Positions 1-54,850 of a stretch of 64,000 bases of DNA are shown here, in pieces. Below the pieces are notes generated by a model. The model was given only the letters and a program-made list of their open reading frames with translations. It had not been told where the DNA came from and searched no databases. Within the stretch, counting starts at the first letter, position 1. The number at the start of each line of letters is the position of its first letter. Position numbers and translations under genes: made by a program. The stretch spans positions 736,001 through 800,000 of the forward strand of contig CM000436.1 in the NCBI GenBank assembly GCA_000165345.1, read 5' to 3'.

Positions 1-39
1 CAAATTAAAAAGGACTGGCTCCTTGAATACAGAAATGGG

Positions 40-3000
40 TTGAGCTCCGAAGAAATGCAGCAGAGACAGATTGAAGGTAAATCATATACTATGCCATTAC
101 TTAAGGCAATGCTCTTGAGTCACTACAACCGCACAGCATGGAATAATGCCGAAAGCCAGGTTAAGTATTCAAATATTAAAAATGGCCAAACTACTGATGA
201 ACTCAGAGAAATTTCTCAAAGATTAATGGTAGATGAAGATAACAGTGCGAGAGTTCTTTTAGAGAGGAAGTACTGTATGAAGAAGGTTGGACTGTTAGGA
301 AAATTTTCACCGCGCTGGTTCATTTTCAAGGGTACGAATTTGGCTGTTTTCCATTCAGCTCATGAGGAAACCCAACCAAAATTCTACAGCTTAGTTGGTG
401 CAGCATATGAAGTTGAAGATAGAGATTCTTCTCCAAACAAAACATTATGGGCAACCCCAATAGAAATTATTTCTGAAGATGGAAATATTGTGCATAGTGA
501 TGCAAAGTACAGGCTCTCTGTAGTTACAAAAGAGCCAAAAGTAAGACACTTTTGCTTGTACAGTAATAAGAAAGAGGAAATTGCAGATTGGGTAAAAGTT
601 TTCCATGTTGCCAATTTAAATTTGGATCCAAGCCAAGCAGCATTGATTTCTAATGTAATTACTAGAATTGCTCAGAGAGATGTCCCTTCGGCATGGGAAG
701 CATTAGTTTATGAGGCAGAGAACAGGGCGCATAGAGAAACAATGTTAAGGTGTTTTGTTAATAGACTTAGATACCTCAAGGCCACAAGAGTCCTCAATAA
801 GTGGCAAACTATCTATAAGGTACAAAACAAAGATTCCAATGAGGGGTTAAAGTTGTTAGGTAGGGAGGTTATGCTAGGTAGACTTTATCGCCGCGACAAA
901 TTGTTAGTTAGAACTAGCCAACAAAGAGAAGCAATTATTGAGCTTATCCAAGAAGGATATAGAAGAGAAAAGAGCAAAAGCCAGGCTCAAATGAAAGCTT
1001 CTACTGAGAGCATTGAAACTACTGATAGCGACGCAGCTGCCATTGCTGCTACTTCTGAAGGAGCACAAATTAAGCAGGGTCAACAAGGGCGTGATTTTCC
1101 AACTGTTTTTTACGTCAACCCATCAATAGAGAAGTACCATTCCAAAATTTTGGATAGTAAGGAACAATCAATTAAATCAAAATACTCTAAGCATACAATT
1201 ATTCCTACATACCAGGAGGATGCAAATGTTAGGATTTCGAGTGATTTAAGCAGGGTTATTTGGGCCCCAAAAAAGTGGGAATCTGTTGGAAATAAGAATA
1301 TGTTTATCGATGTAGATTCAATATCATCGATTATTGTTAATGCATCAAAGCCCTCATATGCATCAAAGGGACTATACTCTGCTCCTAGTATAGTTAGCGA
1401 ATATGATATCGCTGAATGCGTTGATGAGTATGTATACAGTATGACTGATTCTTGCTTCTCTCATATTGCAGATAAGGAGAAAAGAGAGAGAGACCCACAA
1501 AATAGAATCACTACTGGTAACTGGTTGGCTATTTGCGGTCCAAGATTAGGATTTAAACCAGCATATTCACCAGATTTCCTGATCCGTGATACGCCTGTAG
1601 TTGTTATGAAAGTTAATATCAACATTAAATCTATCAGTTTAAATGAGAGGTTCTCTCGTCTTTATACAGAATATTATCAATATTATGCTGATGAATTGCA
1701 AGAAATGACTCCTTATGAGAAGACAACCACAATGGCAGCCTTAACTTATGGTGATAACTCTCAAACCACCAAATTGAACACCATCAAATCTTTGGTTTCA
1801 AACGTCCAAACAAATGAAGAAATAGTACGTGATTACGGCACAATGACAAGTAGCATCTCTAGCATTAGGAGACTATTTACAGCAGCATCAAACATTGATA
1901 ACGAAACAATTGAAAATAATCTTAAGGAATCAGGATCTTCAAACTTTGAAAATCAAATTAAACCATCAAACTCTACAGTTGCATCGATAAGAAACCTTTT
2001 CACAAAAAATATTTCAAATGTCAAAGATTTTAATTCTCCAAGATCATCACCAGTAAGATCTCAGACGAAATCTGCAACTGTTACAGGCACAAAACCCGCA
2101 AGGCAAATTGATGGATTAGTGCTCCCTCCAGAACTAAGTGTTATTGATCCATTTAAAACAGTCCAGGTTGAAAGAAACCTAGAGATAAGGGATAGCACAG
2201 TTCAAACATATCTAAGAATTACAGCCTTTCATCAATCTTATACATCTGCTCATGCTGTAGGCGTTAATCCAACATATGACTTGAATTTTTGCGTTGATGT
2301 CCCATTGATGACATCAAATGCTTCAAAAGAGATGATTAATGAGGCAAGAATCAAAGCTATGGAAGATGCTATTTGTACAGTCGACCTTTGGGTTAAGTCG
2401 CCAATTGATTGTGTTCCGGATGAACTTATTGCATCTATTGATATTCCTCTAAAGGAATTGAGCAACAGTGATAGACTTTCCAGACAAAGATCTCAGTTTA
2501 TTGCTGCTGATTCATTCATTCTTAAGCAACCAGTTCCTGATTTAAAATCTAGTGTTAGTGGCAATTCAAGAGCAATTCAAATACTTAAATATTTGGGTCT
2601 TCTAGATCCAAGTAGCGAAAATTTGGAAGATTTACCACTTGGTCAATTGGATATTTCTGCTGATTCAGTCATTGAGACATCAATTATGGGAGAAAACCCT
2701 ATTTCACCTGAAACTATTTGTTTAGGTGGTCTTCAGGGTCTTTCTTCTTATTCAATTGATCAGTCTACAAATCAAAATATCAGACAAAAGAATGGAGATT
2801 GTGTTGAATTATATATTGGGCAAGTAAAACTTGATCCAAATTGGACTCCAGGTCTGTACTTTGTTGAAGTTATTATGGGAGATGTTAGTTGTATGACTCA
2901 CTTAGTTCAAACAAGATACGATTCAATTTCTGCTGATTTCCGTTCTCATCTGTATATTCCAAGATATGATAATCAACTTGGAGTTGATCCAAAGTGCTTA

Positions 3001-6000
3001 CAAATATTGATAAGACGTGCATTGGGAACTGAAGATAGATGTTCCTCATTGGCTAGGTTACTCCAAGATTCTGTTATAATGGGTGAGTTAATTGTAGACG
3101 TCACAAAGTTAACGATGAATGAACCACACAGTAGCAATGGACTTTATGCTGTCTTCAAACCAACTACATCTGCACTCTATGGAAGTAGAGGTTTGGATTA
3201 TGCTTTAGAAATAGCCCAGTTGGGGCCAAAATCTGATGAGTTGCAAGAAGCAAAACAACACATCATGTTAGATGTTCAAATTAGAATGATGATCACATTG
3301 AGAAGAAAAACAGACGTAACATTAAAAAAAGTAATTGATCAATCAGATGACTTTAAATTAGTGGGTGATACTGCGCTACTAGTTGTAGAAGAAGAGCTGA
3401 AATATCCAATTTCGCAAAAAGAATTCCATGTAAAATGCTGCCCTGGTAATTTTGATACATTAAAAGCTGGAACTCTTGGATTGCCATTAAGATCAGTTGG
3501 AAACTATATAGAATACGAAATTGGAGGGTTCCAAGAAAATTCAGATCAACAAATCAACGATTTGAATACTCTAAACAAATTCGAGAACGATAGCATTTTA
3601 AACGAAGAATTAGAAGCTATTGATGCTCAGCCAGTTCCGTTATATGCGAGCGATCCAGTACCTGCTCAATTCTATCTCCCGGAAGATCCACGCACATTTA
3701 GAAGCCGTAAGTTACCAGGTATTTGGCATCGAATATTGGCTGATGGATTTAGACCAGGGGAACGCGTAACGAGACTTACACATCGTGTTAGATATGTTCC
3801 AGTTACTATTATTGCAATATATAAAAACAGGACTGCTTTGTGCAGATGGGCAGAAAATGTTTCTATAAATCCAACAGAATTTCCTGAAGGCTGTGTATTC
3901 ATCCCAGAACAAAGATTAGTCATGGGCGTTCCGCTTTCATTTCTTTCAACCCCACATAAAGCTGGTATTCATGTATATGATTCGACTATCACTAGACTAC
4001 CGGATAACAGTATAACATTGTTAAGTGATATAACGAACTATGGTGGATACATGCCATTGAGCGTTAACCCAATATTCTGTGAATATGAATGGGTACTCTG
4101 GATTAAGGCAGAGACCCCTCAACAAATGACTTTATGGGCAACAATTATTAGGAATACTGTAAGAGAAAGAGCATTTAGACGTGTTAGGGCATATGAAAGA
4201 ACCAGAGATATAATGAATAATGAAGAAGAGGTTGAAAATAATGATTGTAAAGCTTCTACTTCCATGATCTCAAGAAATTCGAATGGTCAATCATACTTAG
4301 AAAAACGATATGACAGTGGAGAATTAGAAGTTGTAGTACATAGCTCAAAGATTTTGTGTAAAAGTAATCAATCATTAAACTTTTATTCAGTTTTCCAATG
4401 GGCAAGAATACCAAAACAATTATACGAAATGATTGAAAATGAAGGAAATTATGATGTTAAGAGTAGTATTCGCCAAGCAATAAAAAGAATTATTGAGGAA
4501 AGTATTCTTGGATTTAATATGAAAAATAGAAGTTCAGTTACCGACCAATTGACTCCTCAAGAATTGAGGCCTGCACCAATAGATATGAGTACTGCAAAAC
4601 TGCATGCAAGCTATATTCCATTTAGTCTTTCAACTCAAATAAAAGAGAATAATTTGTACTCTGTTGATAGGATAAAAGATGAATTCTTAATTTTGGTTAC
4701 AAAAATAACATTCAGTTCTTATTACCTTTCAAATCTATGCAAAAATGTTTTACCAGATGAAACTTCTCCATATGTAAAGAATTCGAAGGAAGCCAAATTA
4801 TTGGATAAGATTAGCGGCGAATTGGTTGGCGTAGTTCCTGACAAACTAGACAAAAATAAGTTGACAAATGAAGTTTATAATACATATAGATGTAGGTTTT
4901 ATAATAACAAAGATACGTGCGAACAGGGAGGAAGTGTATTCAGTACAACTCATATTGATACAAGTGATGAAGTTCCACTTTTAATTATTAAACTATTCCA
5001 AGAGTCAAATGATGGTTTGGATACATTTATTGGCCATGTAATATTGAATACTGTTGATTACCTGACTCCAGAAAATCCATTCCAAATTAAATACAAAAAA
5101 ATCAATCCAAGATATACTTATATTGTTTCTGCTTCAGGTACCGGTGGTAAGATGTATAGTTTTGATACAGTTCCTGATGCATTAAACTTTGTAATGTCCC
5201 AAAATAAAGAAATAACTGTTGAAGAATTTTATAGGGCATTATATGGAGAAACAAATCAAGCAAGAAGAATTCATGGTCCATGGAGAGTCAGAGTGCAAGA
5301 AAATATTGAATACCATGGTGACGTTTGTTTAATGGTTAGATATGGCCCCACTGATATTCGGCTATTGACAGAATTCCAACCCACTGCTAATGATTATAAG
5401 GAACATATCTTAGATTATCATAGAAAGCAATTTGATGACAGTGGTATTCCATATATTCATACAGTTTATGATCCCAATACACCATTTGCAGTTAAGATAG
5501 CAAGAATATTCGGGAACAAGTTTGGTCAATTGAATGGAAATGTTTTTGATTTGTTAAAGAAATATTCAGATGACACGAAAATGCTTAAATTGATACAAAT
5601 GTATTTATTAAGACCAGCTGAACAATGGGTTTACGAGAGAAGTCTTTATGAACAAATGTTATTCTTAGAACCATTGACAGATTTAATCGAAAAGCAGAAT
5701 ATGACAAGATGGAAATATTTATTAGCAGATTCTAATAATAGAGGTTTACAACAATGGGAACAACTATACCGTCAAGGTTTATTATTGCATAAAGTTGATG
5801 AATTATCATATGATAGTTGGTCTATATTAGTAAATGCTAATGTTCGTGACCGTTTGCCATCGATTTTACTTGAATTATGGAATGGAGAAGAATATTTAGG
5901 TGAATATTTATTGCCTTCGTTGTCATCCTTACTATTAAGTAAGATTAACACTACAGTTAGGCTACATACATCTGCTTTGGCTAGAGAAAATGATAAGAAA

Positions 6001-9000
6001 ACACGTTATGACATCCGAAAGGAAAATTTAACAAGTTCAAAATTGTCTACATTTATAAATATGGAAATTAGTTGGAGAATCAAAAGCACGACTGAAGGTA
6101 TATTTGGATTGATAGTAAAAGATGTCAGAAATGTTGTTTCTGAATTAACAGATGACTTAAATGAAATTAAACCTCAAATACATGTTTATCAGTACTTTTC
6201 AGATAACGATCAATGGAGAATAATGGAAATAACTAAGCCTAGTATTGCTACAAGAACAATTTTGGGCATCGAAACTCCAGAAAAATTAAAAAAACAAAAT
6301 ATTGAATGGAATAATGTTTTTGTTTATAGCCGAGACAGAATTGTCGATCTTCAGTTCCCAATATCAATTCCTGCTATGGTTGAATCAGTCCCAATTGTAT
6401 TTAACTTTAATGAATTGTTGCTCTCAGATAATAATAGTATCAAATTAGACAAAGATGAAAATAATGAGGTTGTTGAAAAAATATGGTCATTATTGAAATC
6501 AGGAGTTCCAAACTATTATCGTCCGTATATTTGGATGCAGCTAAGCGGCGCAAATGACTTAAAGAACTCAATCCAGAAAAAATGGCAATCGTTGAATGAT
6601 TCAAATAAATGTGGTCATGACACGTTATTCTCATATTTAATTGAGTATGCAGATACATGTAATTCTTGCGTATTGAGGCAGTTAGATGAAGATATTGAAT
6701 CAGCGAAAATACGTTATCACATGTGCGAATCAATATTGGGCATTGATCAAGTTCATACTTTCTGGGAAAATGTCCGTTATATTATGAGAGCATTAATTGT
6801 TTTCTCATTAAGAAAGAAGTATAATATTTATAACTGCGAAAAATTCCATGTTGGATTGCCATTACAATATGCATTTGGCCTATTATCCTTAACTATCGAA
6901 TTATTAATGAATTTTGGTGGTGTCTGTTTAACTCCAGAAGATGTTTTCTATCTAGTTTATTCTGTGTGTGGTTCTAGGCATAATATTTATTTAAAATCTA
7001 ATAATGAAGAAGATAAAAAAGATGAAAATAGATCTTTGAAGAATAAGAAATTGATAAAAGGTGCTCTATTGCCTTATTATACAACAGAAGAACAAGAAGA
7101 TGATTTAAACAATGATATGCCTGCGCAGATTAATGATATCATTTTCTTAAAGAGTGCTTTAGAATTACTACATCCATTTGAATACGATAATATGTTAGCA
7201 TCCGGGTTTCAGCTTGAAGAAATATTTTATGGATGTCTAACATCAATATTTGCAGGCTCATTACCATCTTCAACAATTACACAATTGTATGATTTATTGT
7301 TCAATGTATACTTCCAACCAAAAGATATTTTCATGAAAAGAGGAGAGCACCATCATAAACATGATCATAAAAATGATATTGATTATAATGATAATAAAAT
7401 AAATATTTCACTTAGTAGGCGTATTTTAATATGCTTATCTTACTTTATCATAACAGAATCATATCGTGAAATTAATATCAACCCATTGATTTCTTCTAAG
7501 TGTATTCGTGAAACTATTAAATCTACTATGGCTACTATGAGAGATCCATTAGAAATGGTACACGGTATTGAAAGAGCTGATTTTATCATTTTTGGAAACA
7601 AGAAAATTTATGAAACTATATTAAAATTATATGAGACATATATTATTTCATATCAAGAATCTTTATGGTTTTCGAAAAAGCAAAATTCGGTGTTAGAAAA
7701 AATGATCAATATGACCCCATTACAAAATCAACATGGTAGTGATGCACCTTCACATTTAGGAATGAGATTCATTGGAGGAAGATATGTACCCAAGACTGTT
7801 GCTTCTCCTGGATTATCACTAAAAGATTTAACAGAGTCATTATATCCATTAATTAAATTCCAAGCACTCTATGCGGGGAGAAATCTGCATCAATTACCAC
7901 CTGGAATTGCTGGTTATGTAATAATAAAAATAGATGAAGTACGTGAATTTGCCAAATATAATGAACCCATATCTCCGGTAGTTTGTGTGAGAATGGACCA
8001 ATATAAAGTTGCAACAGACCCTGCAACTGAAAGATGTTCTAGATCATTTATATGGAAATCAAATAACGTATTTATGTTCCCAATACCGATTTGGAAATCT
8101 CCTACACAAAAGAAAAATTTAAATGGACGCAACAGCTATCATTTACATAAAGAGTCATCTGAGTCTGAAATGCCGTTGACCGTTGAAATTTTTATCGAAG
8201 TTTTGGATTCCGAAGCGCTTGATGATGAAAATAAATTATTGTGTTCAGCACAATTAAGTTTAGACAGGTGGTCAACTGACGGTGGTAGCTTATCATTAAA
8301 TGGTGATGATGGAACATTAGCAATATATAATGATTGTAATAAAATGAGCTTACTATTTTCATGGTATACATATGTACCAAATAGTGAGTTGGACACAAGC
8401 GCTTTATTACCATTTTCATTTGGAAAACAACAATGGGGTGATTATGGTGGCTACCACTGTATCTATGCACCAGTTAATGTAGAGTCATATAGGAATGAAT
8501 TGCATTCCGAATTAAAAGAGGAAAAATTGAAAGAATGGGAATCAGAGCCAAGACAAAGCGTATTAGATATTATTCGTGGTCATAGAAAAATGGATGAGAG
8601 TGGTGGAAATTTAGATGCTTTACCAACAATGAGATCCATGTATCCCGGTAAATTGGAAATCAGCACTGGAAAGTACGGCCCAACTAGATCGCAATTGCAA
8701 CAATTGTTTTTCTTCTCAGCTCCTTCTCTTTTACCATACGTTGACGAGATTGTCGAGAGTTTTGCAAAAATATCTATGAACTCATCAGAGGAGAAGGTTA
8801 CATTAACCCCAGTACCTTTAAGAGAACTCATTGCATCCATTATTTTATGTTCCCGTGGTACATTAAGCGAAAAAGCCAATTTATTATTTGATTTATTTGG
8901 CTATGATGATGCAAATCGATTGTCTGTAGCATTCCATTCAATGTATTATTCTCATACTCCTCAGTATCCAGCGGCTATTCAAATTGGTTCCCAATTAAAT

Positions 9001-12000
9001 ACTCATTTACCAGTTGAGGTATCTGATAAACTAGGTGTTGCTCCTTCAAATGTAATTTCACTAGCAGGCGTGGCAGCAATAGTACAAACTGCATGCATAC
9101 GTTCAAATATACCATTAGATAATGTTGGAATTTACCAAATTACAGCTTCAGTATTTGACCATTATTTCGATGTACCTAGTGTTGTAAAAGCATTGATTAT
9201 ACCTCCTAAGGGATATGATGGGCGTGTATCTAAGGAATATATTACACATAATTATCGCAATTTGAAGTATGATACGAGCTCAATATCAAATACTGAAGAT
9301 ATTACAATAGATAATATGAATATTTTTAGTGATTGCAAAGGAAGTAAGGGTATCTTTAACTCAATTAATTGTATGAATGGTAAAAGTGTTAAAGAAAATG
9401 CATACTGGTATAACATCGATCATATGATTGACAGTAAATTTATTTTGGATGTATCGAGATCCATAACACACCATATTAGAAAAAATGCATCTTTGGAAGG
9501 GTTATTTGGAATTGATTTCTCTGTTCATACTTGCCTAAGGCATTTTGATATTAATGATCCTTTCCCAGGTTTAATTAAAACATTAAGAATAATTATTAGT
9601 GGGAAGAGAAGTAAACATGAAATTAGAATAATTGATCTAACAATTGATGAGAAAGGCCACTTTATTGATTCAAGAGTACAATATGGTACAGAAACTAGTG
9701 ATGATTTGCACACGACAGATGTTAGAGGAGCAAATCAATTCAGACAAGCATTTGAATCAGGTTTAGCAACTGTCGATTTCCCAAGACTGTTGTTTAGTGA
9801 CGGAGCTGCAAATGGTAAAGAAAGAGTGCCTACTGCTAGTTTTGTCTTCAATCTACACAATATCTTAATTGATAAATATAGTTTTGTTACAAAATTCTGT
9901 GATTTCACATTAGTAACAGAAGCAATAAGGAGAATAACTGCTAATGATCGTACATGCGAGCCTAATCGATATCTTAAATTAAATGTAGAAGTTAATTTAA
10001 CCCTCGAAGAAAACAGATCTTATCCTCACTACAGCGTTGATGAAATCCTAGGCGTTCCATTAAAAATAATGAATAATAATGACGAGCTAGCAAATCAATT
10101 AAGCCAATCTCTAGTAATCTCTGGCTCAAATAATAATATTGGTAATCAAAGTCAGAGAAGTGTTATTTCAATGAATGCCTCAACATTAATGAATGAAGAT
10201 GGATACATGACTCAAAGATCAATGATTTCAACTAATTCAAAACAAGTATTCGAGCCGTCTTTATCGGTGCATTCTTCAATGCCTTTATTAACAGAGGGTG
10301 AAGACACAAATGAAGATGTTGGTTGTCAAAGTATAGAAGCAGAGAAGTTGAAATCAGGTATTTCATTAACGAGCAGCAATAGCATTGCTAAAGGTGAGAT
10401 TGAAAAGATGTTATCAAAGAAATCTACTTTAGTTGGAGATGAAGAATTGGAAAAAATGGTTTCAAACAATTCATATCAAGACAATAACGTTAATAATGCC
10501 GAAAAGTTGCCGACAAGAACGGAGAGTAACTCAGGGGCTGTATTAAAGCAAGCTTCTACTGCAACTTCTAGGATTGCTGCTTTGTTTATGACTAGGCAAT
10601 CTTCATTGTTTAATTCTCTATCATTCAATAATGATGGCGAAAATAATAAAGAAGCCGACGGTACTTTAGATTCTAAATTGAATTCTATTGCTAAATCATC
10701 TTCAAAAATTTCTGATGAAGAGATAAATAAAATAGAATCAACTTCTATTCCAAGAAATAAATCTTACAATATTGATGAAGATGAGGAAGAGCTTAAAGTG
10801 GATGAAGAAGAGGAAATGTTATTGCAACAACAACAATTATCTTCAGCAATTAATTCATTTAACTCTAAAAGAATAAATTCTCAAACAAGTCTACTTAGCG
10901 CAGTAAGTCGCGGCGCATCAACTGTAAATCTATGCCGTACATTCACTAGAGGAAATTTTGGCTCATATTATGAGGCTGAAGGCAAGACAGAGTATCAGGT
11001 TGATATTCCTTTTAGACCACCAGGCCAGGTAGAAGAGAGGCATAATATTAGAGTTTATTTGGCTGACAGCATCCGTGTTTTAAAGAATAAGGTAATGGAA
11101 GCTTGCAAATCAATTGCTCAAAGGTTACAAGAAAGTGGAATTGATAATGGATTGTATAAAGAGATTGTATTAGGGCCACATCATGTAGTTGAGCTAGTTG
11201 TTACTGACTTTGATGGCCATATTCGTTATTTGCCTTTATTAAATGAAACAAACTCTATTGAAGACTATATTCTTTCAAATGAAGATTTACTGCAAGAATT
11301 TATAACTTCGAATATGAATAGCATTCTTAACATCAGAATCATTCCACCAAAGAATTTACAAACAGAGAAATCAACTAGAATCGTTAATGAGATGCAACAC
11401 GAAAGTGGTGGAGCTTGTATTACAAGTATGTATTTGGCAAATGAGCTTGCAAACCACGAAATATTGGAAGATGGATTATTAGTTAGGAACCCATTAGGGT
11501 TTAGAACATATTTCCATAAGGCTCATTATGAAATAAGAAACAAGATGATTGAAATTGAACCGGGAAAAGTGGTATCTTTGGATAATTTATGTTTTGTAAG
11601 AAAAAGTAATACAGTACTAAATAACCTAGCAGCATGCATAAATTTAGATTGGAATGTTGATGAATGGGTTCCAGCAGTTGCAATTAGAGGAATTAATACA
11701 TTCTTGGATGAACTTGAAGGCATTCATTCTGAGTCGGTGCGTGGCCGCACATCTAGAATTCCGCAAGCAGTATTAAGTGCATCGTCAACGATCGGAGGGT
11801 TTATGCCAGTAACATTAGGAGCATATAACCCAATTTCTGCTGCGTTTGACTATGGTTATGGAGCAAGAAATGGAAGCATATCTGTTTCAAATAATCATAG
11901 AAACTTTGGAAATGGATCTAGTACAAAGAGGTACAAAACTGGAACGAATTCGGGCACTAAGAAATTTGGAACGACTACAACTGGTATAGCCAGTACAAAC

Positions 12001-12444
12001 CAACCTTCTAACTCTGTATCTTCAAAGATTAAACCAGAAGATATGATCACATCTGTTTATGGATGGGATCTATGCTATGAAGTTATTCTATTAGATTTCC
12101 ATGACTTGATGATTGAAGGAGGAATCAATACAAGAGAGTCCATTTGTGTAACTGAAAATGATGTTATTTTCTGTTTCAAAAATCCAAGTGTAAGGCAGCA
12201 ATTCGAGATTACTCAACTTACTACGGACGAAAAAATTAGAATTATGTCTCTTTCTGAATCAGGGATGTGCCCTCAAAGAATTGCGCTCGAGCTATCTGAA
12301 GACAGAGTTGCTGCATTAAAGAGTGGCTCGTACTCTATGCTATATAATAATCAACCAAGAGCAGTTGTTGTACCACACCAATTAGTTTCTGAATTTTTGA
12401 GAAGGTTCAGAGCAGCAATTGAAGAAGACAAACATATTTTCTAA
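40..12444 (+). CDS. Giant multidomain protein of more than 4100 aa. It has an N-terminal PH domain (about aa 75-190) and a central degenerate TBC/RabGAP-like domain (about aa 2140-2290, nt about 6460-6900). Long low-complexity and acidic stretches fill the remainder. The 5' end may lie outside the window.
   Basis: Single uninterrupted ORF of 12.4 kb. The track start at 40 is a TTG; the first in-frame ATG is at 55-57, and the frame stays open back to nt 1. A PH-like segment (KVGLLGKFSPRWFIFKGTNLAVFH...ADWVKVFHVANLN) lies near the N-terminus. A TBC signature-like segment GVPNYYRPYIWMQLSGA lies near nt 6500, but the canonical IxxDxxR arginine finger and YxQ glutamine finger are not evident. Confidence 0.6.
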   Translation: MSSEEMQQRQIEGKSYTMPLLKAMLLSHYNRTAWNNAESQVKYSNIKNGQTTDELREISQRLMVDEDNSARVLLERKYCMKKVGLLGKFSPRWFIFKGTNLAVFHSAHEETQPKFYSLVGAAYEVEDRDSSPNKTLWATPIEIISEDGNIVHSDAKYRLSVVTKEPKVRHFCLYSNKKEEIADWVKVFHVANLNLDPSQAALISNVITRIAQRDVPSAWEALVYEAENRAHRETMLRCFVNRLRYLKATRVLNKWQTIYKVQNKDSNEGLKLLGREVMLGRLYRRDKLLVRTSQQREAIIELIQEGYRREKSKSQAQMKASTESIETTDSDAAAIAATSEGAQIKQGQQGRDFPTVFYVNPSIEKYHSKILDSKEQSIKSKYSKHTIIPTYQEDANVRISSDLSRVIWAPKKWESVGNKNMFIDVDSISSIIVNASKPSYASKGLYSAPSIVSEYDIAECVDEYVYSMTDSCFSHIADKEKRERDPQNRITTGNWLAICGPRLGFKPAYSPDFLIRDTPVVVMKVNINIKSISLNERFSRLYTEYYQYYADELQEMTPYEKTTTMAALTYGDNSQTTKLNTIKSLVSNVQTNEEIVRDYGTMTSSISSIRRLFTAASNIDNETIENNLKESGSSNFENQIKPSNSTVASIRNLFTKNISNVKDFNSPRSSPVRSQTKSATVTGTKPARQIDGLVLPPELSVIDPFKTVQVERNLEIRDSTVQTYLRITAFHQSYTSAHAVGVNPTYDLNFCVDVPLMTSNASKEMINEARIKAMEDAICTVDLWVKSPIDCVPDELIASIDIPLKELSNSDRLSRQRSQFIAADSFILKQPVPDLKSSVSGNSRAIQILKYLGLLDPSSENLEDLPLGQLDISADSVIETSIMGENPISPETICLGGLQGLSSYSIDQSTNQNIRQKNGDCVELYIGQVKLDPNWTPGLYFVEVIMGDVSCMTHLVQTRYDSISADFRSHLYIPRYDNQLGVDPKCLQILIRRALGTEDRCSSLARLLQDSVIMGELIVDVTKLTMNEPHSSNGLYAVFKPTTSALYGSRGLDYALEIAQLGPKSDELQEAKQHIMLDVQIRMMITLRRKTDVTLKKVIDQSDDFKLVGDTALLVVEEELKYPISQKEFHVKCCPGNFDTLKAGTLGLPLRSVGNYIEYEIGGFQENSDQQINDLNTLNKFENDSILNEELEAIDAQPVPLYASDPVPAQFYLPEDPRTFRSRKLPGIWHRILADGFRPGERVTRLTHRVRYVPVTIIAIYKNRTALCRWAENVSINPTEFPEGCVFIPEQRLVMGVPLSFLSTPHKAGIHVYDSTITRLPDNSITLLSDITNYGGYMPLSVNPIFCEYEWVLWIKAETPQQMTLWATIIRNTVRERAFRRVRAYERTRDIMNNEEEVENNDCKASTSMISRNSNGQSYLEKRYDSGELEVVVHSSKILCKSNQSLNFYSVFQWARIPKQLYEMIENEGNYDVKSSIRQAIKRIIEESILGFNMKNRSSVTDQLTPQELRPAPIDMSTAKLHASYIPFSLSTQIKENNLYSVDRIKDEFLILVTKITFSSYYLSNLCKNVLPDETSPYVKNSKEAKLLDKISGELVGVVPDKLDKNKLTNEVYNTYRCRFYNNKDTCEQGGSVFSTTHIDTSDEVPLLIIKLFQESNDGLDTFIGHVILNTVDYLTPENPFQIKYKKINPRYTYIVSASGTGGKMYSFDTVPDALNFVMSQNKEITVEEFYRALYGETNQARRIHGPWRVRVQENIEYHGDVCLMVRYGPTDIRLLTEFQPTANDYKEHILDYHRKQFDDSGIPYIHTVYDPNTPFAVKIARIFGNKFGQLNGNVFDLLKKYSDDTKMLKLIQMYLLRPAEQWVYERSLYEQMLFLEPLTDLIEKQNMTRWKYLLADSNNRGLQQWEQLYRQGLLLHKVDELSYDSWSILVNANVRDRLPSILLELWNGEEYLGEYLLPSLSSLLLSKINTTVRLHTSALARENDKKTRYDIRKENLTSSKLSTFINMEISWRIKSTTEGIFGLIVKDVRNVVSELTDDLNEIKPQIHVYQYFSDNDQWRIMEITKPSIATRTILGIETPEKLKKQNIEWNNVFVYSRDRIVDLQFPISIPAMVESVPIVFNFNELLLSDNNSIKLDKDENNEVVEKIWSLLKSGVPNYYRPYIWMQLSGANDLKNSIQKKWQSLNDSNKCGHDTLFSYLIEYADTCNSCVLRQLDEDIESAKIRYHMCESILGIDQVHTFWENVRYIMRALIVFSLRKKYNIYNCEKFHVGLPLQYAFGLLSLTIELLMNFGGVCLTPEDVFYLVYSVCGSRHNIYLKSNNEEDKKDENRSLKNKKLIKGALLPYYTTEEQEDDLNNDMPAQINDIIFLKSALELLHPFEYDNMLASGFQLEEIFYGCLTSIFAGSLPSSTITQLYDLLFNVYFQPKDIFMKRGEHHHKHDHKNDIDYNDNKINISLSRRILICLSYFIITESYREININPLISSKCIRETIKSTMATMRDPLEMVHGIERADFIIFGNKKIYETILKLYETYIISYQESLWFSKKQNSVLEKMINMTPLQNQHGSDAPSHLGMRFIGGRYVPKTVASPGLSLKDLTESLYPLIKFQALYAGRNLHQLPPGIAGYVIIKIDEVREFAKYNEPISPVVCVRMDQYKVATDPATERCSRSFIWKSNNVFMFPIPIWKSPTQKKNLNGRNSYHLHKESSESEMPLTVEIFIEVLDSEALDDENKLLCSAQLSLDRWSTDGGSLSLNGDDGTLAIYNDCNKMSLLFSWYTYVPNSELDTSALLPFSFGKQQWGDYGGYHCIYAPVNVESYRNELHSELKEEKLKEWESEPRQSVLDIIRGHRKMDESGGNLDALPTMRSMYPGKLEISTGKYGPTRSQLQQLFFFSAPSLLPYVDEIVESFAKISMNSSEEKVTLTPVPLRELIASIILCSRGTLSEKANLLFDLFGYDDANRLSVAFHSMYYSHTPQYPAAIQIGSQLNTHLPVEVSDKLGVAPSNVISLAGVAAIVQTACIRSNIPLDNVGIYQITASVFDHYFDVPSVVKALIIPPKGYDGRVSKEYITHNYRNLKYDTSSISNTEDITIDNMNIFSDCKGSKGIFNSINCMNGKSVKENAYWYNIDHMIDSKFILDVSRSITHHIRKNASLEGLFGIDFSVHTCLRHFDINDPFPGLIKTLRIIISGKRSKHEIRIIDLTIDEKGHFIDSRVQYGTETSDDLHTTDVRGANQFRQAFESGLATVDFPRLLFSDGAANGKERVPTASFVFNLHNILIDKYSFVTKFCDFTLVTEAIRRITANDRTCEPNRYLKLNVEVNLTLEENRSYPHYSVDEILGVPLKIMNNNDELANQLSQSLVISGSNNNIGNQSQRSVISMNASTLMNEDGYMTQRSMISTNSKQVFEPSLSVHSSMPLLTEGEDTNEDVGCQSIEAEKLKSGISLTSSNSIAKGEIEKMLSKKSTLVGDEELEKMVSNNSYQDNNVNNAEKLPTRTESNSGAVLKQASTATSRIAALFMTRQSSLFNSLSFNNDGENNKEADGTLDSKLNSIAKSSSKISDEEINKIESTSIPRNKSYNIDEDEEELKVDEEEEMLLQQQQLSSAINSFNSKRINSQTSLLSAVSRGASTVNLCRTFTRGNFGSYYEAEGKTEYQVDIPFRPPGQVEERHNIRVYLADSIRVLKNKVMEACKSIAQRLQESGIDNGLYKEIVLGPHHVVELVVTDFDGHIRYLPLLNETNSIEDYILSNEDLLQEFITSNMNSILNIRIIPPKNLQTEKSTRIVNEMQHESGGACITSMYLANELANHEILEDGLLVRNPLGFRTYFHKAHYEIRNKMIEIEPGKVVSLDNLCFVRKSNTVLNNLAACINLDWNVDEWVPAVAIRGINTFLDELEGIHSESVRGRTSRIPQAVLSASSTIGGFMPVTLGAYNPISAAFDYGYGARNGSISVSNNHRNFGNGSSTKRYKTGTNSGTKKFGTTTTGIASTNQPSNSVSSKIKPEDMITSVYGWDLCYEVILLDFHDLMIEGGINTRESICVTENDVIFCFKNPSVRQQFEITQLTTDEKIRIMSLSESGMCPQRIALELSEDRVAALKSGSYSMLYNNQPRAVVVPHQLVSEFLRRFRAAIEEDKHIF

Positions 12445-12601: not shown

Positions 12602-14332
<1,731 letters not shown>

Positions 14333-14586: not shown

Positions 14587-15960
14587 TTATTCAGTTCCAA
14601 AGTATCGATCAGCAAAACAACCTAATCCTGGAATTACAAAACCATCAGAGTTAACATCACGGTCAATTTCAGTCGTAATTAGAGTTACCTCCGGGAACTC
14701 TTTACATATTCTGTGTATTGCATTGTGAGCAACAATAAGACTAAGAACAATAATTTTACGCTGCAAAACCCCCTTTGATAACAAATATTTAATTGCAGAA
14801 AATACCCCAAATCCATTCCCAAGAATAGGATCCAAAATAAATACATTCCTTGAGGCAATATCATCGGGTAATTTGCAATAGATAATCTTAGGTTTATCAA
14901 ACTGGGCATCAAGTTCCGTTTTAGGATTTTGGAACTCCAGTAGAATTTTTCCTATTGGGATATCTTTACAAACAGCAGATAAACCTATTTCCATACTTTC
15001 TCCTCCTCTAACTATTGAGACCGCGCAGAGTTTATCCTTGTAATTAAATTGCACTCCGTCGTAAAGTTCTCCAATAGGTGTTTCAATTGTTTGACCAGTA
15101 AAAGACAAATGGCTAAGAGCATTTTCGACGACCAGTCGAATTAATCTATCTGACCAAAAGACAAAGTCCACCACTGATGTATCCTTATTCCTTATAATAG
15201 AGTGCATATGGCGTATTTGACAATTAGAAGGAATAATATGCAAATTAGAGTAAATTTTTCTTAAATCATCCATTTTTAACTTGTATCTAAGATGTTGTAC
15301 AACAAGGTCAACAGCAACTTCATTTGGATAATGCGGAATTACGATATCTGCATATCTTCTAGTCGGATAAATGAATTCATCATAGGATGGCTTAACCGTT
15401 TTCTCATATTGATTAAGAATATCGTCAATTTGTCTGCCTCTCTCAATAGTATCTCTTCTTATTCTACGTACAAGACGAATATCATCGTCCGTATCGACAA
15501 AAATTGACATATTTATAAGATGTCTAATTTTTGGATGGAAAAGAATAAATATGCCTTCAACAATAATAATAGATGCTGGAGAAACCTTCCTTCCTGTTTC
15601 CAATCTCTTATGTTGTTTAAAACAGTAGTTAGGGATGTGAACCCCTTCCCCGTTTTTCAAACTTAGTAAAACATTGTATAGAAGTTCAAAGTCCACAGAA
15701 TTAGGATGATCAAAGTTGTAGTCTGCCATAGTTTGCCCCTCTTCTAAGACAGGAGTTTTATAAAAACTATCAGTCTCAATTACCGTAACTCGTTTATCTC
15801 CTAACTCTGAAAAAATTCTGGTACATACGCTTGTTTTTCCGCTTGCACTTCCTCCTGCAACTGCAATAACAAAAACATTTGAATTGCTGCTAGGCGTTAA
15901 AGCTTGATCGCCATAATATATGTCTTTAGAAATTAATTTTTCAAGACTGATATTAGACAT
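14587..15960 (-). CDS. UK-UPRT: Bifunctional uridine kinase / uracil phosphoribosyltransferase (UK-UPRT fusion), pyrimidine salvage.
   Basis: True ATG start. The N-terminal half has the uridine-cytidine kinase P-loop VIAVAGGSASGKTSVC, plus VTVIETDSFYK and DFDHPNSVDFELL. The C-terminal half has UPRT motifs: SIVRGGESMEIGL and the PRPP-binding FILDPILGNGFGVFSAI. Confidence 0.85.
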   Translation of the reverse strand: MSNISLEKLISKDIYYGDQALTPSSNSNVFVIAVAGGSASGKTSVCTRIFSELGDKRVTVIETDSFYKTPVLEEGQTMADYNFDHPNSVDFELLYNVLLSLKNGEGVHIPNYCFKQHKRLETGRKVSPASIIIVEGIFILFHPKIRHLINMSIFVDTDDDIRLVRRIRRDTIERGRQIDDILNQYEKTVKPSYDEFIYPTRRYADIVIPHYPNEVAVDLVVQHLRYKLKMDDLRKIYSNLHIIPSNCQIRHMHSIIRNKDTSVVDFVFWSDRLIRLVVENALSHLSFTGQTIETPIGELYDGVQFNYKDKLCAVSIVRGGESMEIGLSAVCKDIPIGKILLEFQNPKTELDAQFDKPKIIYCKLPDDIASRNVFILDPILGNGFGVFSAIKYLLSKGVLQRKIIVLSLIVAHNAIHRICKEFPEVTLITTEIDRDVNSDGFVIPGLGCFADRYFGTE

Positions 15961-19360: not shown

Positions 19361-21031
19361 TTAAGCATCCACTTTTATTCTCTTCACGTCATTTTCGGTA
19401 GAAATAATTGAATTCTCCCTCACTTCACTCCATTCGGAATTTATACCATTAGCAGTTATCAAAGTATTAATCTCTCCTCCAGTATCTGCTGATTGATCTT
19501 CGGTTTCTGCTCGAGCTTCTGTTTCAATATTTGGTGTTTTGTATTCAAATATAGATGTTTCGATAGAACCATTACTTTTTACAACCAATAATTCAGTAGA
19601 ATTTGATTTTGGATCTAATTCTTGTGACTCAGTCGTGCTTGAAGGCAGAGCAAAGTCTCCACCTCCACCATTTACCTGCTCGCTTACCTTAGTCAACTCA
19701 TTAATGTTTGTGCTAGGCTTTCTCTTTGTACCCCTCAAACCCACTTTCCCTTTGCTTTGAGCAAGCGATTGTGCATGTAAGTTTATAAACCGTTCTTCAA
19801 GCCCACACATAGCCGCTATTTGCCAAAGCTGCTTTGTAGTTGCGTTCCGAATATCCGCTATTTTGCTTGCTTCAACTCTTTTTTCGGGATGACTTCTAAG
19901 GTAGGCTGACAACTCACTTTTCAATAATGCCCTTCCCTGGTCGCCTAATCTATATTTTCTTGTATGGCTAATCTTAAAAACGTCATTTGGTTCGCCTAGA
20001 ATGCATTGGTCTGAGCCACTAGTGTGAGAAATACCATTTGAAAGATTTTCAAATGAAATTTGGCCCAATTTAATATTCCTTAAGTTGTAATCTGGTAGTC
20101 CGGGATTTCCAATCGGCTTCATCGAATCATCACAAACAATATTAGTACTTTTATTAAAGTCGCCGTTTGCGTTCAAATAATTTTTTACTCTTTCATGCGC
20201 ATCCGCCAGACTAGCAATATTATTTAGATAAGAATTCAGCAATGAATTAAGCTTATCACTTTCTTCTGGCACGCCTATTTCCTTTTTCAACGAAAGCACT
20301 GGCTTTTTAATTTTGCTGATATCGCAATTTTCGGTTCCGCTAACCAAATTATTCTGATAAATCGAGCCTAGACATGGGCCAATTATTGGCGATATTCTAG
20401 GCATGATATTCGGGTGAATGATCGAGGGTTGAGATCCGATTGACAAAAGCGGTGATTGCAACAATGGGTTGATAATTGGAGGTTGAGAATCCAATTTTAT
20501 GGAATTAATAGATTGATTCTCCTCTTTAGATAACAAATTGTTTTGAGTAGACAAAATTGATTCTATTCCTGGAAAACTGGCTATTGGTATTCCACTTACT
20601 GGGATAACGCTCTGTGGAACTACTGTGCCATTCAAATTGTAGCCACTTGGAATGGCACTATAACAGTCTGGCAATACAGCTCGAACTGCACCAAGAGTAT
20701 TGTTTACTTGATACAGCTGGTTCGGTAAAATCAAGGGAAAACCAGGGTTTAATTCATTAATTCCACCAATATTCATATTTAACCCAAATCCAAGGTTTAA
20801 ACCAATCCCAATATTTTGTCCTAAAGATGAATTTATTGCTTGGCTAGTATTTTGACCTGAATTTGTGAACAATGATTCGATATAATTATTTGAAAAACTT
20901 TTCCCTTCTAGTATTGGCGATACACATGTTGTCGATGGGGCAGTTCCTGTTTTATTGAAAGATTGCTCAATTAATGCGCTCGACCCATTTTCAGTCTTTT
21001 CACTGGTATTTATTTCGTTCAGATGATTCAT
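19361..21031 (-). CDS. Hypothetical low-complexity (Ser/Asn/Gly/Leu-rich) protein with a conserved-looking basic helical block near aa 350-430.
   Basis: True ATG start. The ORF is 556 aa and largely low complexity. I recognise no domain. Confidence 0.5.
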   Translation of the reverse strand: MNHLNEINTSEKTENGSSALIEQSFNKTGTAPSTTCVSPILEGKSFSNNYIESLFTNSGQNTSQAINSSLGQNIGIGLNLGFGLNMNIGGINELNPGFPLILPNQLYQVNNTLGAVRAVLPDCYSAIPSGYNLNGTVVPQSVIPVSGIPIASFPGIESILSTQNNLLSKEENQSINSIKLDSQPPIINPLLQSPLLSIGSQPSIIHPNIMPRISPIIGPCLGSIYQNNLVSGTENCDISKIKKPVLSLKKEIGVPEESDKLNSLLNSYLNNIASLADAHERVKNYLNANGDFNKSTNIVCDDSMKPIGNPGLPDYNLRNIKLGQISFENLSNGISHTSGSDQCILGEPNDVFKISHTRKYRLGDQGRALLKSELSAYLRSHPEKRVEASKIADIRNATTKQLWQIAAMCGLEERFINLHAQSLAQSKGKVGLRGTKRKPSTNINELTKVSEQVNGGGGDFALPSSTTESQELDPKSNSTELLVVKSNGSIETSIFEYKTPNIETEARAETEDQSADTGGEINTLITANGINSEWSEVRENSIISTENDVKRIKVDA

Positions 21032-21753: not shown

Positions 21754-23640
21754 ATGAGCATATATATATCTAATGATTATTCTGAGCCTAATTGTAATGT
21801 TCTACCGGATTGTAAATACAGTTTGTGCTACGTAAACTTAGCTCTAAATTCTCAAAAAATTGGGAGAAAGGGGAAATTTCAATCTAAAAGTTTTGAGTTC
21901 TTTGTTACCTTATACAAAAAGAATTTATTAACTGACGAGGAATTACAAATAGGAAGTTGCAGAATATTACCTTCGAATTATTGCACGCCATTTGAAAGGA
22001 ATTATTGTACAGTTTATTTTAATTTTTTTTCAATAGATGAATTAAAAGAATTTTTGGAAAAGAACGAAATAATTGTAATATTGAAGTTAGGTTTTGGCAT
22101 TAATCATTTTGAGGTGTTGTTTGACGAAACGATAAATTACTTCATCAAACCAGTAACAAGCATTAAGAATGAGTTATTTTTATCAAACAAAAATAACGAT
22201 TTCGAAGTTACTTTTATTGTTAATGTCGAGTGGTTTGCAACAATTCCTAAAATCATTAAAAACAATAGTGAAAACCTCGAAAAGCTAGACAAAAATATTC
22301 CTATCTCTTCGGGCTTAAAGATTGAGAATAAAATCTTTAATATTAATATGATTGATAATCCTAATATGAGTTTGATATATGAAAAAACAATTTGCAATGA
22401 CCCAATTATATCGAAAAAGATAGTTTGTTCGCAACCTATAACGAAAGCACTAAGTAAACATACTATTGACAAGTCAAAAAATATTAAGAACAATTTTTTT
22501 GCACCAAGTATTCACTCTTTGAACAATATAGGCAGTTGGACTGTAAAAATTAAAAATATTATATTGACTGAAAATGGGTTCACGTTTCTTCATGATAAGT
22601 TCCCAAAATATAGACAATCAAAAAGTTACAAGGTTATTGTCCAGTATTGCATTAAAAATGAAGATGGAAAAACTATAACACAAACTAGAAAGCATTGGAG
22701 TATAATGAGTTTTTTAAAGAATTACAATAATTTTTCTATTGATAATAGAATTCCAAGAAAACTTTACTACATTGCAAAAGCAAATATTTATTCTAGAATT
22801 CCTGAAACTATCATCGATAAAATAGAGGAAAAATACTTTCATATTAGTTTTTCGATTCCAAATTCACAAATACTATATGAATCAAAAGTTGATAAAGGAA
22901 ATGCTATTTTTTATGGCATATTGCATCCAAATGAAATTTCTTTAACTAAAGAATCTTTGGTCAAGCTTTATTCAGAGTTTCATAAAAAGAAATGTTTAGG
23001 TTATGCATTAATATCATTCTCAGATATAAAAGAAAAACCTTATGATAGTATAAACCTTCATGATAAAATCGATCGAATTATCGAAACAAAGAATAATTCA
23101 AATAAGAAACAATGCAAGGCGGGCTATTTAGAAGGAATGAGTATTATTTATCTGTATATATACTGGCACATTCAATTTCGGGCAAAAAATGAAAGGAAAA
23201 CACCTGAAAGTATTTTAGTGGAGTTTTATTCAAAGATTTCAAGTTCCAAAACTATTGAAGGAGGAGTAAATGTAACAGGAATGAAGAAGTGTGTAAGCGC
23301 ATTAATACACTCTAATACTGAATTAGCTCATAGTTTGATGAGCTACACAGGCTGTATTCCTGAAAACCTCACATTGTTTAACAACGTTTATGAATTGAGG
23401 TATTATTTACTTTTTCCTCATCTTGAAACATTTGAAAACTCTTGTAATGATATTTTTTCAAATGACAATTCAAAAGTTTTCAACGAATACGAATTTGCTT
23501 ATAAATGTAATGAGTTGGGCATAAGAGAATGCATCTCAATTACTTGGAGAGAAATGATGAAATCATCCTTTGAAGATATTTCTTTGAAAGCTTATAGATC
23601 GTGTTTGCAGCTCTATAAGGTTGAAAATATATTCTTGTAA
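21754..23640 (+). CDS. Hypothetical protein of 628 aa, Lys/Asn/Ile-rich, with no recognised domain.
   Basis: ATG at 21754. The ORF is long and uninterrupted, and the codon usage matches neighbouring genes. Confidence 0.5.
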   Translation: MSIYISNDYSEPNCNVLPDCKYSLCYVNLALNSQKIGRKGKFQSKSFEFFVTLYKKNLLTDEELQIGSCRILPSNYCTPFERNYCTVYFNFFSIDELKEFLEKNEIIVILKLGFGINHFEVLFDETINYFIKPVTSIKNELFLSNKNNDFEVTFIVNVEWFATIPKIIKNNSENLEKLDKNIPISSGLKIENKIFNINMIDNPNMSLIYEKTICNDPIISKKIVCSQPITKALSKHTIDKSKNIKNNFFAPSIHSLNNIGSWTVKIKNIILTENGFTFLHDKFPKYRQSKSYKVIVQYCIKNEDGKTITQTRKHWSIMSFLKNYNNFSIDNRIPRKLYYIAKANIYSRIPETIIDKIEEKYFHISFSIPNSQILYESKVDKGNAIFYGILHPNEISLTKESLVKLYSEFHKKKCLGYALISFSDIKEKPYDSINLHDKIDRIIETKNNSNKKQCKAGYLEGMSIIYLYIYWHIQFRAKNERKTPESILVEFYSKISSSKTIEGGVNVTGMKKCVSALIHSNTELAHSLMSYTGCIPENLTLFNNVYELRYYLLFPHLETFENSCNDIFSNDNSKVFNEYEFAYKCNELGIRECISITWREMMKSSFEDISLKAYRSCLQLYKVENIFL

Positions 23641-53632: not shown

Positions 53633-54538
53633 TTATGTTTTTTTAATATTATTTTCTGTGTTATGTTCAAGTAACAATTCTAAAGTTTTTTGCATTTTAA
53701 GTGATTTCTTAATAAACTCAGAAATACCCAAATTATGTGAGTCGATATTGCGTTCCAATTCTAGTGGATAAATGCTTGGCTGTTTCGGAATTTCAGTAAA
53801 CACTTGAGATTGAGGCGTTGAAATGTCTGAAGAACCTTCAAGTGGAGATGAAATTACTTCTGTTTTATCTCTTGATTTATTTTGAGCCCAAGTAAAAGGA
53901 GCACCATATTTTGAACGAAGTCTTTGTCTTTGATTTTGTTTTAAATTATTTGGCTCAAATATATTTTGATTATTTAATTTCTCTTGTTCATCTTTCTTAG
54001 ATATTTTAAGAGCTTTAAGCAAATTCTTTTTGTCGTTGGAAGTGTTTTGTTTAATAGGGTTGCAAATTTGAGTTTCCTTATTATTGCACTTGCCACCAAC
54101 TTGAGACGGTGATAATGGTACATTAGTCTCTGCAGTGTAAAATAAAGATATCAACTTTAAATCTTCATTATTTCTCAATGATGCTGGCCATGCCCAAGTT
54201 GGGATAAAGGATGAATTTTGAACCTCTGAATTATTGTGTGAAAGCTTTGAAGTGATTCTAAATTTATGTGAACAAATACTACCTGTTCTCAAAGGCTTGG
54301 GGTTAATACATTTAAACGCATGTGAATTCAAGCATGCATCATGAGCTTTGTGAGAAACCATAAATGCACGTAAATCCTCTTCAAATCTAGTTTTATAAAT
54401 TAACCTCAATTTTTCTGCTTTTTTTGCTAATTCGCTTGTATGATTAGATCTTTCTATTTCCAAAGCATTTCTATATCTTAAATGAGATATTTCGTCGTGT
54501 TTCCCATTGTTTGTGTATGTTTTAAACGAACCACCCAT
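53633..54538 (-). CDS. Hypothetical protein of about 300 aa.
   Basis: The track start at 54565 is a TTG; the first in-frame ATG is at about 54538 (MGGSFKTYTNNGK). I recognise no domain. Confidence 0.4.
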   Translation of the reverse strand: MGGSFKTYTNNGKHDEISHLRYRNALEIERSNHTSELAKKAEKLRLIYKTRFEEDLRAFMVSHKAHDACLNSHAFKCINPKPLRTGSICSHKFRITSKLSHNNSEVQNSSFIPTWAWPASLRNNEDLKLISLFYTAETNVPLSPSQVGGKCNNKETQICNPIKQNTSNDKKNLLKALKISKKDEQEKLNNQNIFEPNNLKQNQRQRLRSKYGAPFTWAQNKSRDKTEVISSPLEGSSDISTPQSQVFTEIPKQPSIYPLELERNIDSHNLGISEFIKKSLKMQKTLELLLEHNTENNIKKT

Positions 54539-54850
54539 TTTAACACCGCTCTTTTGATTAACCAAATTTTTTTTACTTAATCCACATAAAATTTTAAAAA
54601 ATAGAATTAATTATTCCCGCGAAAGTTTTTTTGCAATATGTTGGTAAAATAACTTAATAAATAATGGAGTCATACTCAGTCTAGAATAAGCTTTGAATTG
54701 TATGAAACTCATTATTTGTTACTTATTAATATGTATATTTCAATTTAATGCAAATTTTCATTTTAAATTAGTAATTTTTTAAGCGCTAACAATTTTAGAT
54801 CCTATAATTAATTTCCCATGTAAAAAGGCATTTTTCATTCTGTCATATTC

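Follow-up and report, generated by a model that had tools for sequence, protein, structure and literature searches.

A giant Cryptosporidium PH-domain protein with a diverged TBC domain that has probably lost both catalytic fingers

The TBC domains of Rab GTPase-activating proteins (GAPs) work through a dual-finger mechanism, with an arginine finger in the motif IxxDxxR and a glutamine finger in the motif YxQ, as established for Gyp1-Rab33 and in related work (cited in PMC3655817 and PMC11101121). Several ancient TBC classes are without one or both fingers and are generally regarded as non-catalytic; well-known non-catalytic ones are TBC1D7, TBC1D23, TBC1D24, TBC1D19, and WDR67 (PMC3655817). 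Such non-catalytic TBC proteins serve as adaptors or scaffolds (PMC3655817; PMC11101121). In Toxoplasma gondii, 8 of the 18 TBC proteins are without at least one finger, and nine are larger than 200 kDa (PMC11101121). Here we describe a giant gene of Cryptosporidium whose product might act in the same manner. The gene opens a stretch of 64,000 nucleotides (GenBank assembly GCA_000165345.1, contig CM000436.1, positions 736,001 to 800,000 of the forward strand), which we refer to as the window. Our reading, to which we assign a probability of roughly 0.72, is that it encodes a cytosolic multidomain protein of about 4180 amino acids with a true but very diverged TBC domain, that both fingers have been lost throughout the family, and that the protein acts by binding, as a scaffold or effector. 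The gene was already known and named for its PH domain; new are its TBC, C2, and EF-hand-like content and the apparent family-wide loss of the fingers.

The gene and the parts of it that carry this reading are given below (residue numbers follow the window; 33 must be added for full-length numbering).

1-12444, + strand: giant gene coding region (open frame; 4180 amino acid call in a 99.95%-identical assembly; collinear orthologues)
6451-7710, + strand: TBC (Rab-GAP-like) domain, amino acids ~2151-2570 (all-helical model, profile matches)
6502-6534, + strand: TBC motif A, GVPNYYRPYIW, corresponding to RxxxW with R2174 and W2178 (family alignment)
6682-6702, + strand: remnant of TBC motif B, L2228-D-E-D2231-I-E-S2234, with Ser at the arginine-finger position (family alignment)
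6868-6876, + strand: remnant of TBC motif C, Y2290-A-F2292 for YxQ (HMMER and hhalign alignments)

To collect the family, we searched amino acids 2101-3300 of the giant protein against 1.84 billion cluster representatives with HMMER, which returned 28 proteins; those whose source was looked up come from Cryptosporidium, gregarines, Chromera velia, and dinoflagellates, including MMETSP and EukProt transcripts. Many of them are collinear giants by full-length phmmer. A first-pass annotation, made from the sequence of the window by itself, had proposed a TBC domain in the central segment of the protein, and the motifs it quoted are in place (GVPNYYRPYIWMQLSGA at amino acid 2168, nt 6502; PLQYAFGLLSL at amino acid 2287, nt 6859). 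Although family and fold bear this proposal out, the protein's own Pfam score does not: it matches PF00566 with 15.7 bits (E = 0.012), below the gathering threshold of 25.2, over 65 residues only (amino acids ~2370-2434 against profile positions 128-193), and a full-length scan gives no PF00566 match. The sole PDB match of the TBC region by phmmer at E < 10 is the TBC protein 4p17 (E = 0.008), in two collinear pieces. Six of the ten homologues that we scanned exceed the Pfam cut-off in the region aligned to amino acids 2370-2440, with 25.9-46.2 bits (P0016, 46.2; P0025, 43.0; P0019, 40.5; P0010, 29.4; P0008, 26.2; P0005, 25.9). We aligned the TBC region of 16 family members, and all counts out of 16 below refer to this alignment. 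Its profile has 12 matches in the PDB at E < 1, and all 12 are TBC domains (4p17, 8.5e-13; TBC1D4, 2.8e-5; TBC1D1, 1.6e-4; TBC1D7, 8e-3). The AlphaFold2 model built on it is all-helical (mean predicted local distance difference test score [pLDDT] 74.7; predicted TM-score 0.78), and the first 29 Foldseek matches of the model in the PDB are all TBC domains. TBC1D7, TBC1D23, TBC1D24, and TBC1D31 are among the structural matches. Because the homologue scores, the profile matches, and the TBC-only top matches of the model agree, we regard amino acids ~2151-2570, as aligned and modelled, as a genuine but very diverged TBC homologue. The domain has four low-confidence, disordered inserts. One of them is a His/Lys/Asp-rich low-complexity insert (GEHHHKHDHKNDIDYNDNK; 7333-7398, + strand; amino acids ~2445-2466), predicted to be disordered, and Cryptosporidium bovis, C. 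ryanae, and C. xiaoi have a different, shorter sequence in its place.

What remains of the three TBC motifs can be followed through the alignment. The G, P, R, and W of motif A are invariant (16/16), and the motif aligns with GVPxxxRxxxW of TBC1D1, TBC1D4, RABGAP1, and 4p17. In motif B, position 1 is L, I, or V in all 16 members and D2231 is invariant, which fits IxxD. In the register anchored on this motif, the arginine-finger column reads S,S,A,D,L,L,A,N,L,H,A,N,G,V,I,H, with Arg in 0/16 and S2234 in the giant protein. A global hhalign alignment against the TBC1D4/TBC1D1 fragment (sequence checked against 3qyb and 3qye) sets the register four residues earlier and puts E2230 at the finger, with essentially no confidence there; neither local nor global hhalign fixes the register of motif B with confidence. 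The only Arg in the motif B helix is R2226, which is not conserved in the family. The register of YxQ is set by four independent HMMER alignments together with hhalign: HMMER aligns the family segment "piaYseSL" with "vGYCQG" of TBC1D1, TBC1D4, RABGAP1, and RABGAP1L, and hhalign concurs. The Tyr of this motif (Y2290) is present in 16/16, and the glutamine-finger column reads F,Y,K,A,S,S,E,E,Q,E,K,E,E,F,E,E, with a single Gln among the 16 and YAF in the giant protein. Both fingers thus aligned appear to be gone in the giant protein and in practically the whole family. The first-pass annotation had found neither finger apparent and had suggested a pseudo-GAP scaffold; the column counts agree with it on the fingers and, with the flanking motif residues invariant, lend support to the suggestion. 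By analogy with the established biochemistry of TBC domains, the loss would be expected to abolish GAP activity.

The same defect is found in Cryptosporidium, gregarines, Chromera, and dinoflagellates, while the motifs and the fold are conserved, and for this reason the loss of the fingers seems to be ancient, to predate the apicomplexan/dinoflagellate split, and to have been kept under selection rather than to reflect recent decay. A non-catalytic TBC domain kept under selection in turn suggests that the domain binds a partner, be it a Rab or something else, and does not serve as a GAP. The scaffold motifs of the domain (RxxxW, IxxD, and the Tyr of YxQ) are retained, and most likely it binds Rab GTPases rather than switching them off. 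One can imagine that the PH and C2 modules hold the giant protein on a membrane, where the inactive TBC domain would engage Rab-GTP, or some other partner, and leave hydrolysis unstimulated. In vesicle traffic the giant protein would in that case serve as a large scaffold, tether, or Rab effector, in a mode resembling that of the adaptors TBC1D7 and TBC1D23.

The nearest named relatives of the giant protein are those of C. bovis, C. ryanae, and C. xiaoi (4131-4133 amino acids); its full-length identity with the C. bovis protein is 82.8%, and the domain order is the same. Farther away, giant homologues are found in Chromera velia (Cvel_6528, "C2 domain-containing protein," 3642 amino acids) and in dinoflagellates (Polarella glacialis, automatically named "Rab-GAP TBC domain-containing protein," Yihiella, and Biecheleria; 2900-3600 amino acids). 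These are collinear with it over their whole length (PH domain, middle region, TBC domain, EF-like segment, and C-terminal segment); their arginine finger is gone likewise and the Gln nearly always. They differ in that their TBC regions, only 20-24% identical to that of the giant protein, score above the Pfam cut-off on their own, the Gln position is mostly Glu rather than Phe, and a canonical C2 domain lies near the C-terminus. The gregarine homologues (Porospora cf. gigantea KVP17_000913, Gregarina sp., and EukProt transcripts; 2400-3400 amino acids) are 27-30% identical to the giant protein from amino acid ~1634 on and share the TBC, C2, EF-like, and later segments. Unlike it, they have canonical C2 domains in tandem, up to five, at their end, and in the gregarine-type P0002, P0003, and P0004 no counterpart of the N-terminal ~1600 amino acids, including the PH domain, is seen. 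This reflects either a different architecture within the family or incomplete gene models. The first-pass annotation had thought orthologues in other apicomplexans worth seeking; there are orthologues in other Cryptosporidium species and homologues in gregarines. Among the 20 matches whose source was looked up, no coccidian or haemosporidian member was recognised, and none is from Toxoplasma or Plasmodium, which does not establish that these groups lack one.

Along the giant protein, the TBC domain is preceded by a PH domain, then a conserved middle region, and then a C2-like stretch; after it come, in this order, a C2 domain, a degenerate EF-hand segment, and a conserved segment near the C-terminus. 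The parts outside the TBC domain are the following.

277-606, + strand: PH domain, amino acids 93-202 (PF00169, family profile against the PDB, invariant Trp)
3319-4200, + strand: conserved middle region, amino acids ~1107-1400 (phmmer domain table, MAFFT alignment)
7906-8373, + strand: C2-fold beta-sandwich directly after the TBC domain, amino acids ~2636-2791 (AlphaFold2 model, Foldseek)
8686-8925, + strand: degenerate EF-hand-like segment of the neuronal calcium sensor (NCS) type, amino acids ~2896-2975, core VPLRELIASIILCSRGTLSEKANLLFDLFGYDD (focused family profile)
11041-11280, + strand: conserved C-terminal segment, amino acids ~3681-3760, HNIRVYLADSIRVLKNK... (phmmer to dinoflagellate homologues, alignment)

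The N-terminal PH domain, which the first-pass annotation had also seen, is sound but weak in score. PF00169 reaches 26.0 bits (E = 1.3e-5; cut-off 25.1) on the N-terminal 300 amino acids and a marginal 21.1 bits in the full-length scan. Segments of Chromera and dinoflagellates align with the domain, the Trp in its C-terminal helix being invariant, and the family profile finds PH structures in the PDB (first myosin X with E = 2.3e-5, followed by centaurin-alpha1, PLEKHA7, RalGPS1, kindlins, TAPP1, and GRP1). We considered CryPH, the PH-domain protein of the Plasmodium crystalloid (PMC6291999), as a relative and rejected it, since it is an unrelated secreted protein of 287 amino acids. The middle region (amino acids ~1107-1400) is collinear with the Chromera and dinoflagellate homologues, with the motifs VGDxAxLxVEE ... 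LPGIW ... YEW, and has no sequence match in Pfam or the PDB; the C2-like stretch (GELEVVVHSSKIL...) comes after it. The "YEW...W" end of the region resembles a PH-type C-terminal helix.

For the segments that follow the TBC domain, we modelled a 10-sequence alignment of amino acids 2599-3340 with AlphaFold2. The model is poor overall (pLDDT 53), and only its C2 part was used, which has eight strands with pLDDT 60-82. All 46 Foldseek matches of this part in the PDB at E <= 1e-3 contain or are C2 domains (e.g., myoferlin C2A, E = 1.7e-5, TM-score 0.66; otoferlin C2A; Munc13 C2B). There is no Pfam C2 match in the giant protein, and the model suggests, at the level of the fold only, that a C2 domain follows the TBC domain. 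Beyond the TBC domain, conservation is highest in the motif (V/I)xLxE(L/F)xxxLIxxSRGTxxEKAxxLF, which extends from Cryptosporidium to dinoflagellates. While a broad profile of the post-TBC region has no significant PDB match (EF-hand, E ~ 1), a profile focused on the EF-like segment finds EF-hand calcium sensors in 28 of 28 matches at E < 5, mostly of the NCS/KChIP type plus calaxin (best: hippocalcin, 1.2e-4; neurocalcin, 1.4e-4; NCS-1, 8e-4). Model confidence for this segment is only moderate. On inspection of the sequence, neither of the two candidate loops fits the canonical 12-residue calcium-binding loop DxDxDG...E: one, ending ...VPLRE, has E, V, and L at positions 1, 3, and 5, and in the other, DLFGYDDANRLS, position 3 is F, position 5 is Y, and position 12 is S. 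Because of this, we call the segment a putative degenerate EF-hand. The C-terminal segment has the pattern H-x-[IV]-x-V-[FY]-L-x-D-S-I-x-x-[FL]-K in common with the dinoflagellate homologues and could be a small beta-grasp-like domain. Most of the 4147 residues in the window are without a Pfam match (full-length scan; eight overlapping pieces of the remainder also gave none), the full protein has no PDB match by phmmer, and several stretches are of low complexity and rich in Ser, Asn, and Glu.

The giant gene is a single open reading frame (ORF) of 12.4 kb, as the first-pass annotation had described it. Frame 1 of the + strand is free of stops from nt 1 to the stop codon at 12442-12444, which amounts to 4147 codons in translation, and the chance of so long an open frame is ~1e-145 at the composition of the window (~32% G+C). 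The ORF listing gives one ORF at 40-12444 (+ strand, 4134 amino acids); position 40 is the first TTG, taken mechanically by the ORF lister, and not a biological start. The true N-terminus had been suspected to lie outside the window, and the gene indeed proves to be truncated at its 5' end by the window edge, with 33 codons outside and no introns required; with this extension the product has 4180 amino acids and 475.6 kDa. In assembly GCA_048859185.1, whose locus is 99.95% identical to the window, the gene is called at 4180 amino acids (4147 + 33). In the orthologues of C. bovis, C. ryanae, and C. xiaoi alike, the conserved QIKKDWLL with which the window begins is preceded by exactly 33 residues (MSNNIQLNDLNKEPNT...), and the initiator ATG of C. 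bovis is the first after an in-frame stop 18 codons upstream, within an A-rich spacer. The first ATG in the window, at nt 55 (M19), is preceded by 18 codons conserved at the protein level. Because of these findings, the sequence comparison puts the start ~99 nt beyond the window edge; the ATG at nt 55, which the first-pass annotation had kept in view as a possible start, is internal.

The region of the window is compact, intron-poor, and eukaryotic, and contains, in addition to the giant gene, genes for a uridine kinase-UPRT fusion, an LNR/Notch-repeat protein, a ferlin, ERGIC/ERV, Snf7, EF-2, and RFC proteins, an EXS protein, and an SMC/Rad50-like protein. The gene order in C. bovis is the same as in the window (giant gene, LNR protein, uridine kinase-UPRT, DnaJ). 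The neighbours to which we refer are these.

12602-14332, - strand: LNR gene, 576 amino acids, six LNR (Lin-12/Notch) repeats (Pfam, E = 1.3e-36); corresponds to cgd8_2800
14587-15960, - strand: uridine kinase-UPRT fusion, an ordinary Cryptosporidium gene; synteny anchor
29821-33936, - strand: ferlin, 1371 amino acids, three C2 domains and a Ferlin_C region; corresponds to CpFER1 (cgd8_2910); synteny anchor
19361-21031, - strand: ORF without Pfam family
21754-23640, + strand: ORF without Pfam family
43836-45125, + strand: ORF without Pfam family
53633-54565, - strand: ORF without Pfam family
56077-58704, - strand: ORF without Pfam family
60651-61865, + strand: ORF without Pfam family

The last six ORFs (310-875 amino acids) have no Pfam family at E <= 0.001 and probably encode lineage-specific proteins. 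The uridine kinase-UPRT protein is identical in GCA_048859185.1 and many Logan assemblies. The LNR gene at the matching position in C. bovis is called at just 342 amino acids. In C. parvum, cgd8_2800 encodes an LNR protein with a signal peptide and is included in a secretome/transcriptome study (PMC12604037), and cgd8_2910 is the ferlin FER1 (PMC7999867). The product of cgd8_2790 is annotated as a PH-domain protein, has a reported mass of 475.45 kDa, and ranks among the top 20 by abundance in an oocyst-wall-enriched proteome (PMC9508764). We treat the giant gene as the counterpart of cgd8_2790, because the masses (475.6 and 475.45 kDa) and the PH-domain name agree and the neighbours match cgd8_2800 and cgd8_2910: cgd8_2790 and its Cryptosporidium orthologues have the same size, with the LNR neighbour adjoining and FER1 nearby. 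Unlike our reading, the public names of these orthologues give only a PH domain or "hypothetical," with the Pfam column empty and no TBC domain, C2 domain, or EF-hand on record.

How far should the scaffold reading be trusted? Several points weigh against it. With the protein's own score below threshold, the TBC assignment is made of transitive and structural evidence. One might go further and take the TBC likeness as spurious, the central segment being an unrelated helical domain, seeing that the protein alone offers only the short PF00566 match, nothing in the full-length scan, and 10-18% sequence identity to solved TBC domains; the profile and fold results have already refuted this, and we give it hardly any weight. 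We think equally little of the idea that no single giant protein is expressed, the ORF being a product of faulty assembly or annotation or else a pseudogene in decay. The Pfam-less expanse and the low-complexity stretches would suit such an origin, but it is effectively refuted by the same unbroken ORF in the independent assembly and in conspecific Logan assemblies, by unbroken ORFs of 4131-4133 amino acids in three other species, by the minute chance of such a frame, and by the detection of the C. parvum counterpart by mass spectrometry at 475 kDa (PMC9508764). That equivalence is itself one of name, size, and synteny, not of sequence comparison. Moreover, one would not expect a cytosolic trafficking scaffold to be abundant in an oocyst-wall-enriched fraction; the abundance may simply reflect the size of the protein or carry-over. 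The scaffold or effector role, finally, is argued by analogy only.

The rival that deserves most attention, though we consider it unlikely, is that the TBC domain is an active GAP by a non-canonical route, with catalytic residues supplied from elsewhere, by another domain, by a partner, or by the GTPase's own glutamine. The strong conservation of the fold and of the motifs of the Rab-binding face (RxxxW, IxxD, and the Tyr of YxQ, 16/16) would be as expected of an active domain, one dinoflagellate member retains YCQ, and the gregarine Porospora P0003 has an Arg at the finger column in the alternative register. The register of motif B could place either S2234 or E2230 at the finger; neither is Arg, yet a structurally shifted Arg is possible. 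On the other hand, no Arg is conserved anywhere in the motif B helix, R2226 included, and no conserved candidates for substitute residues are seen. The residues at the Gln position (F, Y, K, A, S, E) differ so much in their chemistry that a conserved role in catalysis is improbable, and finger-less classes are generally treated as non-catalytic (PMC3655817). We therefore prefer the reading of the giant protein as a binding scaffold or effector. A much bolder and rather doubtful extension of it is that the giant protein descends from a giant scaffold (PH, C2, finger-less TBC, C2, dead EF-hand) already present in the apicomplexan/chromerid/dinoflagellate ancestor, which coccidia and haemosporidia may have lost or changed past recognition, and that it serves a secretory compartment peculiar to the lineage, as a tether or Rab effector. 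If so, the oocyst-wall abundance in Cryptosporidium would suggest wall-forming bodies or the crystalloid body, and the family would form a new TBC class that never worked by GAP catalysis.

There are few Rab GTPases in the strongly reduced trafficking machinery of Cryptosporidium, and work on the genes of this parasite is difficult. A 475-kDa oocyst-abundant protein named only for its PH domain now gains a testable architecture, in which PH and C2 domains flank a Rab-binding-type domain without canonical catalysis, and the gene is a concrete target for tagging, knock-down, and Rab-interaction screens. The defect, apparently fixed from dinoflagellates to Cryptosporidium, would mark an old non-catalytic TBC lineage.

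Among known TBC proteins, TBC1D8/TBC1D9 and yeast Gyp2/Mdr1 have a GRAM or PH-like domain, then the TBC domain, then an EF-hand. The order of modules in the giant protein is alike (PH superfamily upstream, TBC, EF-hand downstream), a resemblance only; it differs in that the PH domain lies ~2000 amino acids upstream, a C2 domain stands in between, and the EF-hand is degenerate. We considered equating the family with the class TBC-L by way of the EF-hands and rejected this, since TBC-L is WDR67/TBC1D31 and not TBC1D8/9 (PMC3655817); no class is assigned. The giant protein shows no specific sequence affinity to the non-catalytic classes, its best matches being of the active type (4p17, RABGAP1L, TBC1D1/4), and it is 3-10 times larger than non-catalytic TBC proteins, with another domain context. 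What it shares with TBC1D7 (of the TSC complex), TBC1D23, TBC1D24/Skywalker, and TBC1D31/WDR67 is that the TBC fold is kept while one or both fingers are lost (PMC3655817). Non-catalytic TBC domains are already well known, and no new kind of mechanism is revealed here; rather, the giant protein adds to the picture of many apicomplexan TBC proteins as pseudo-GAPs.

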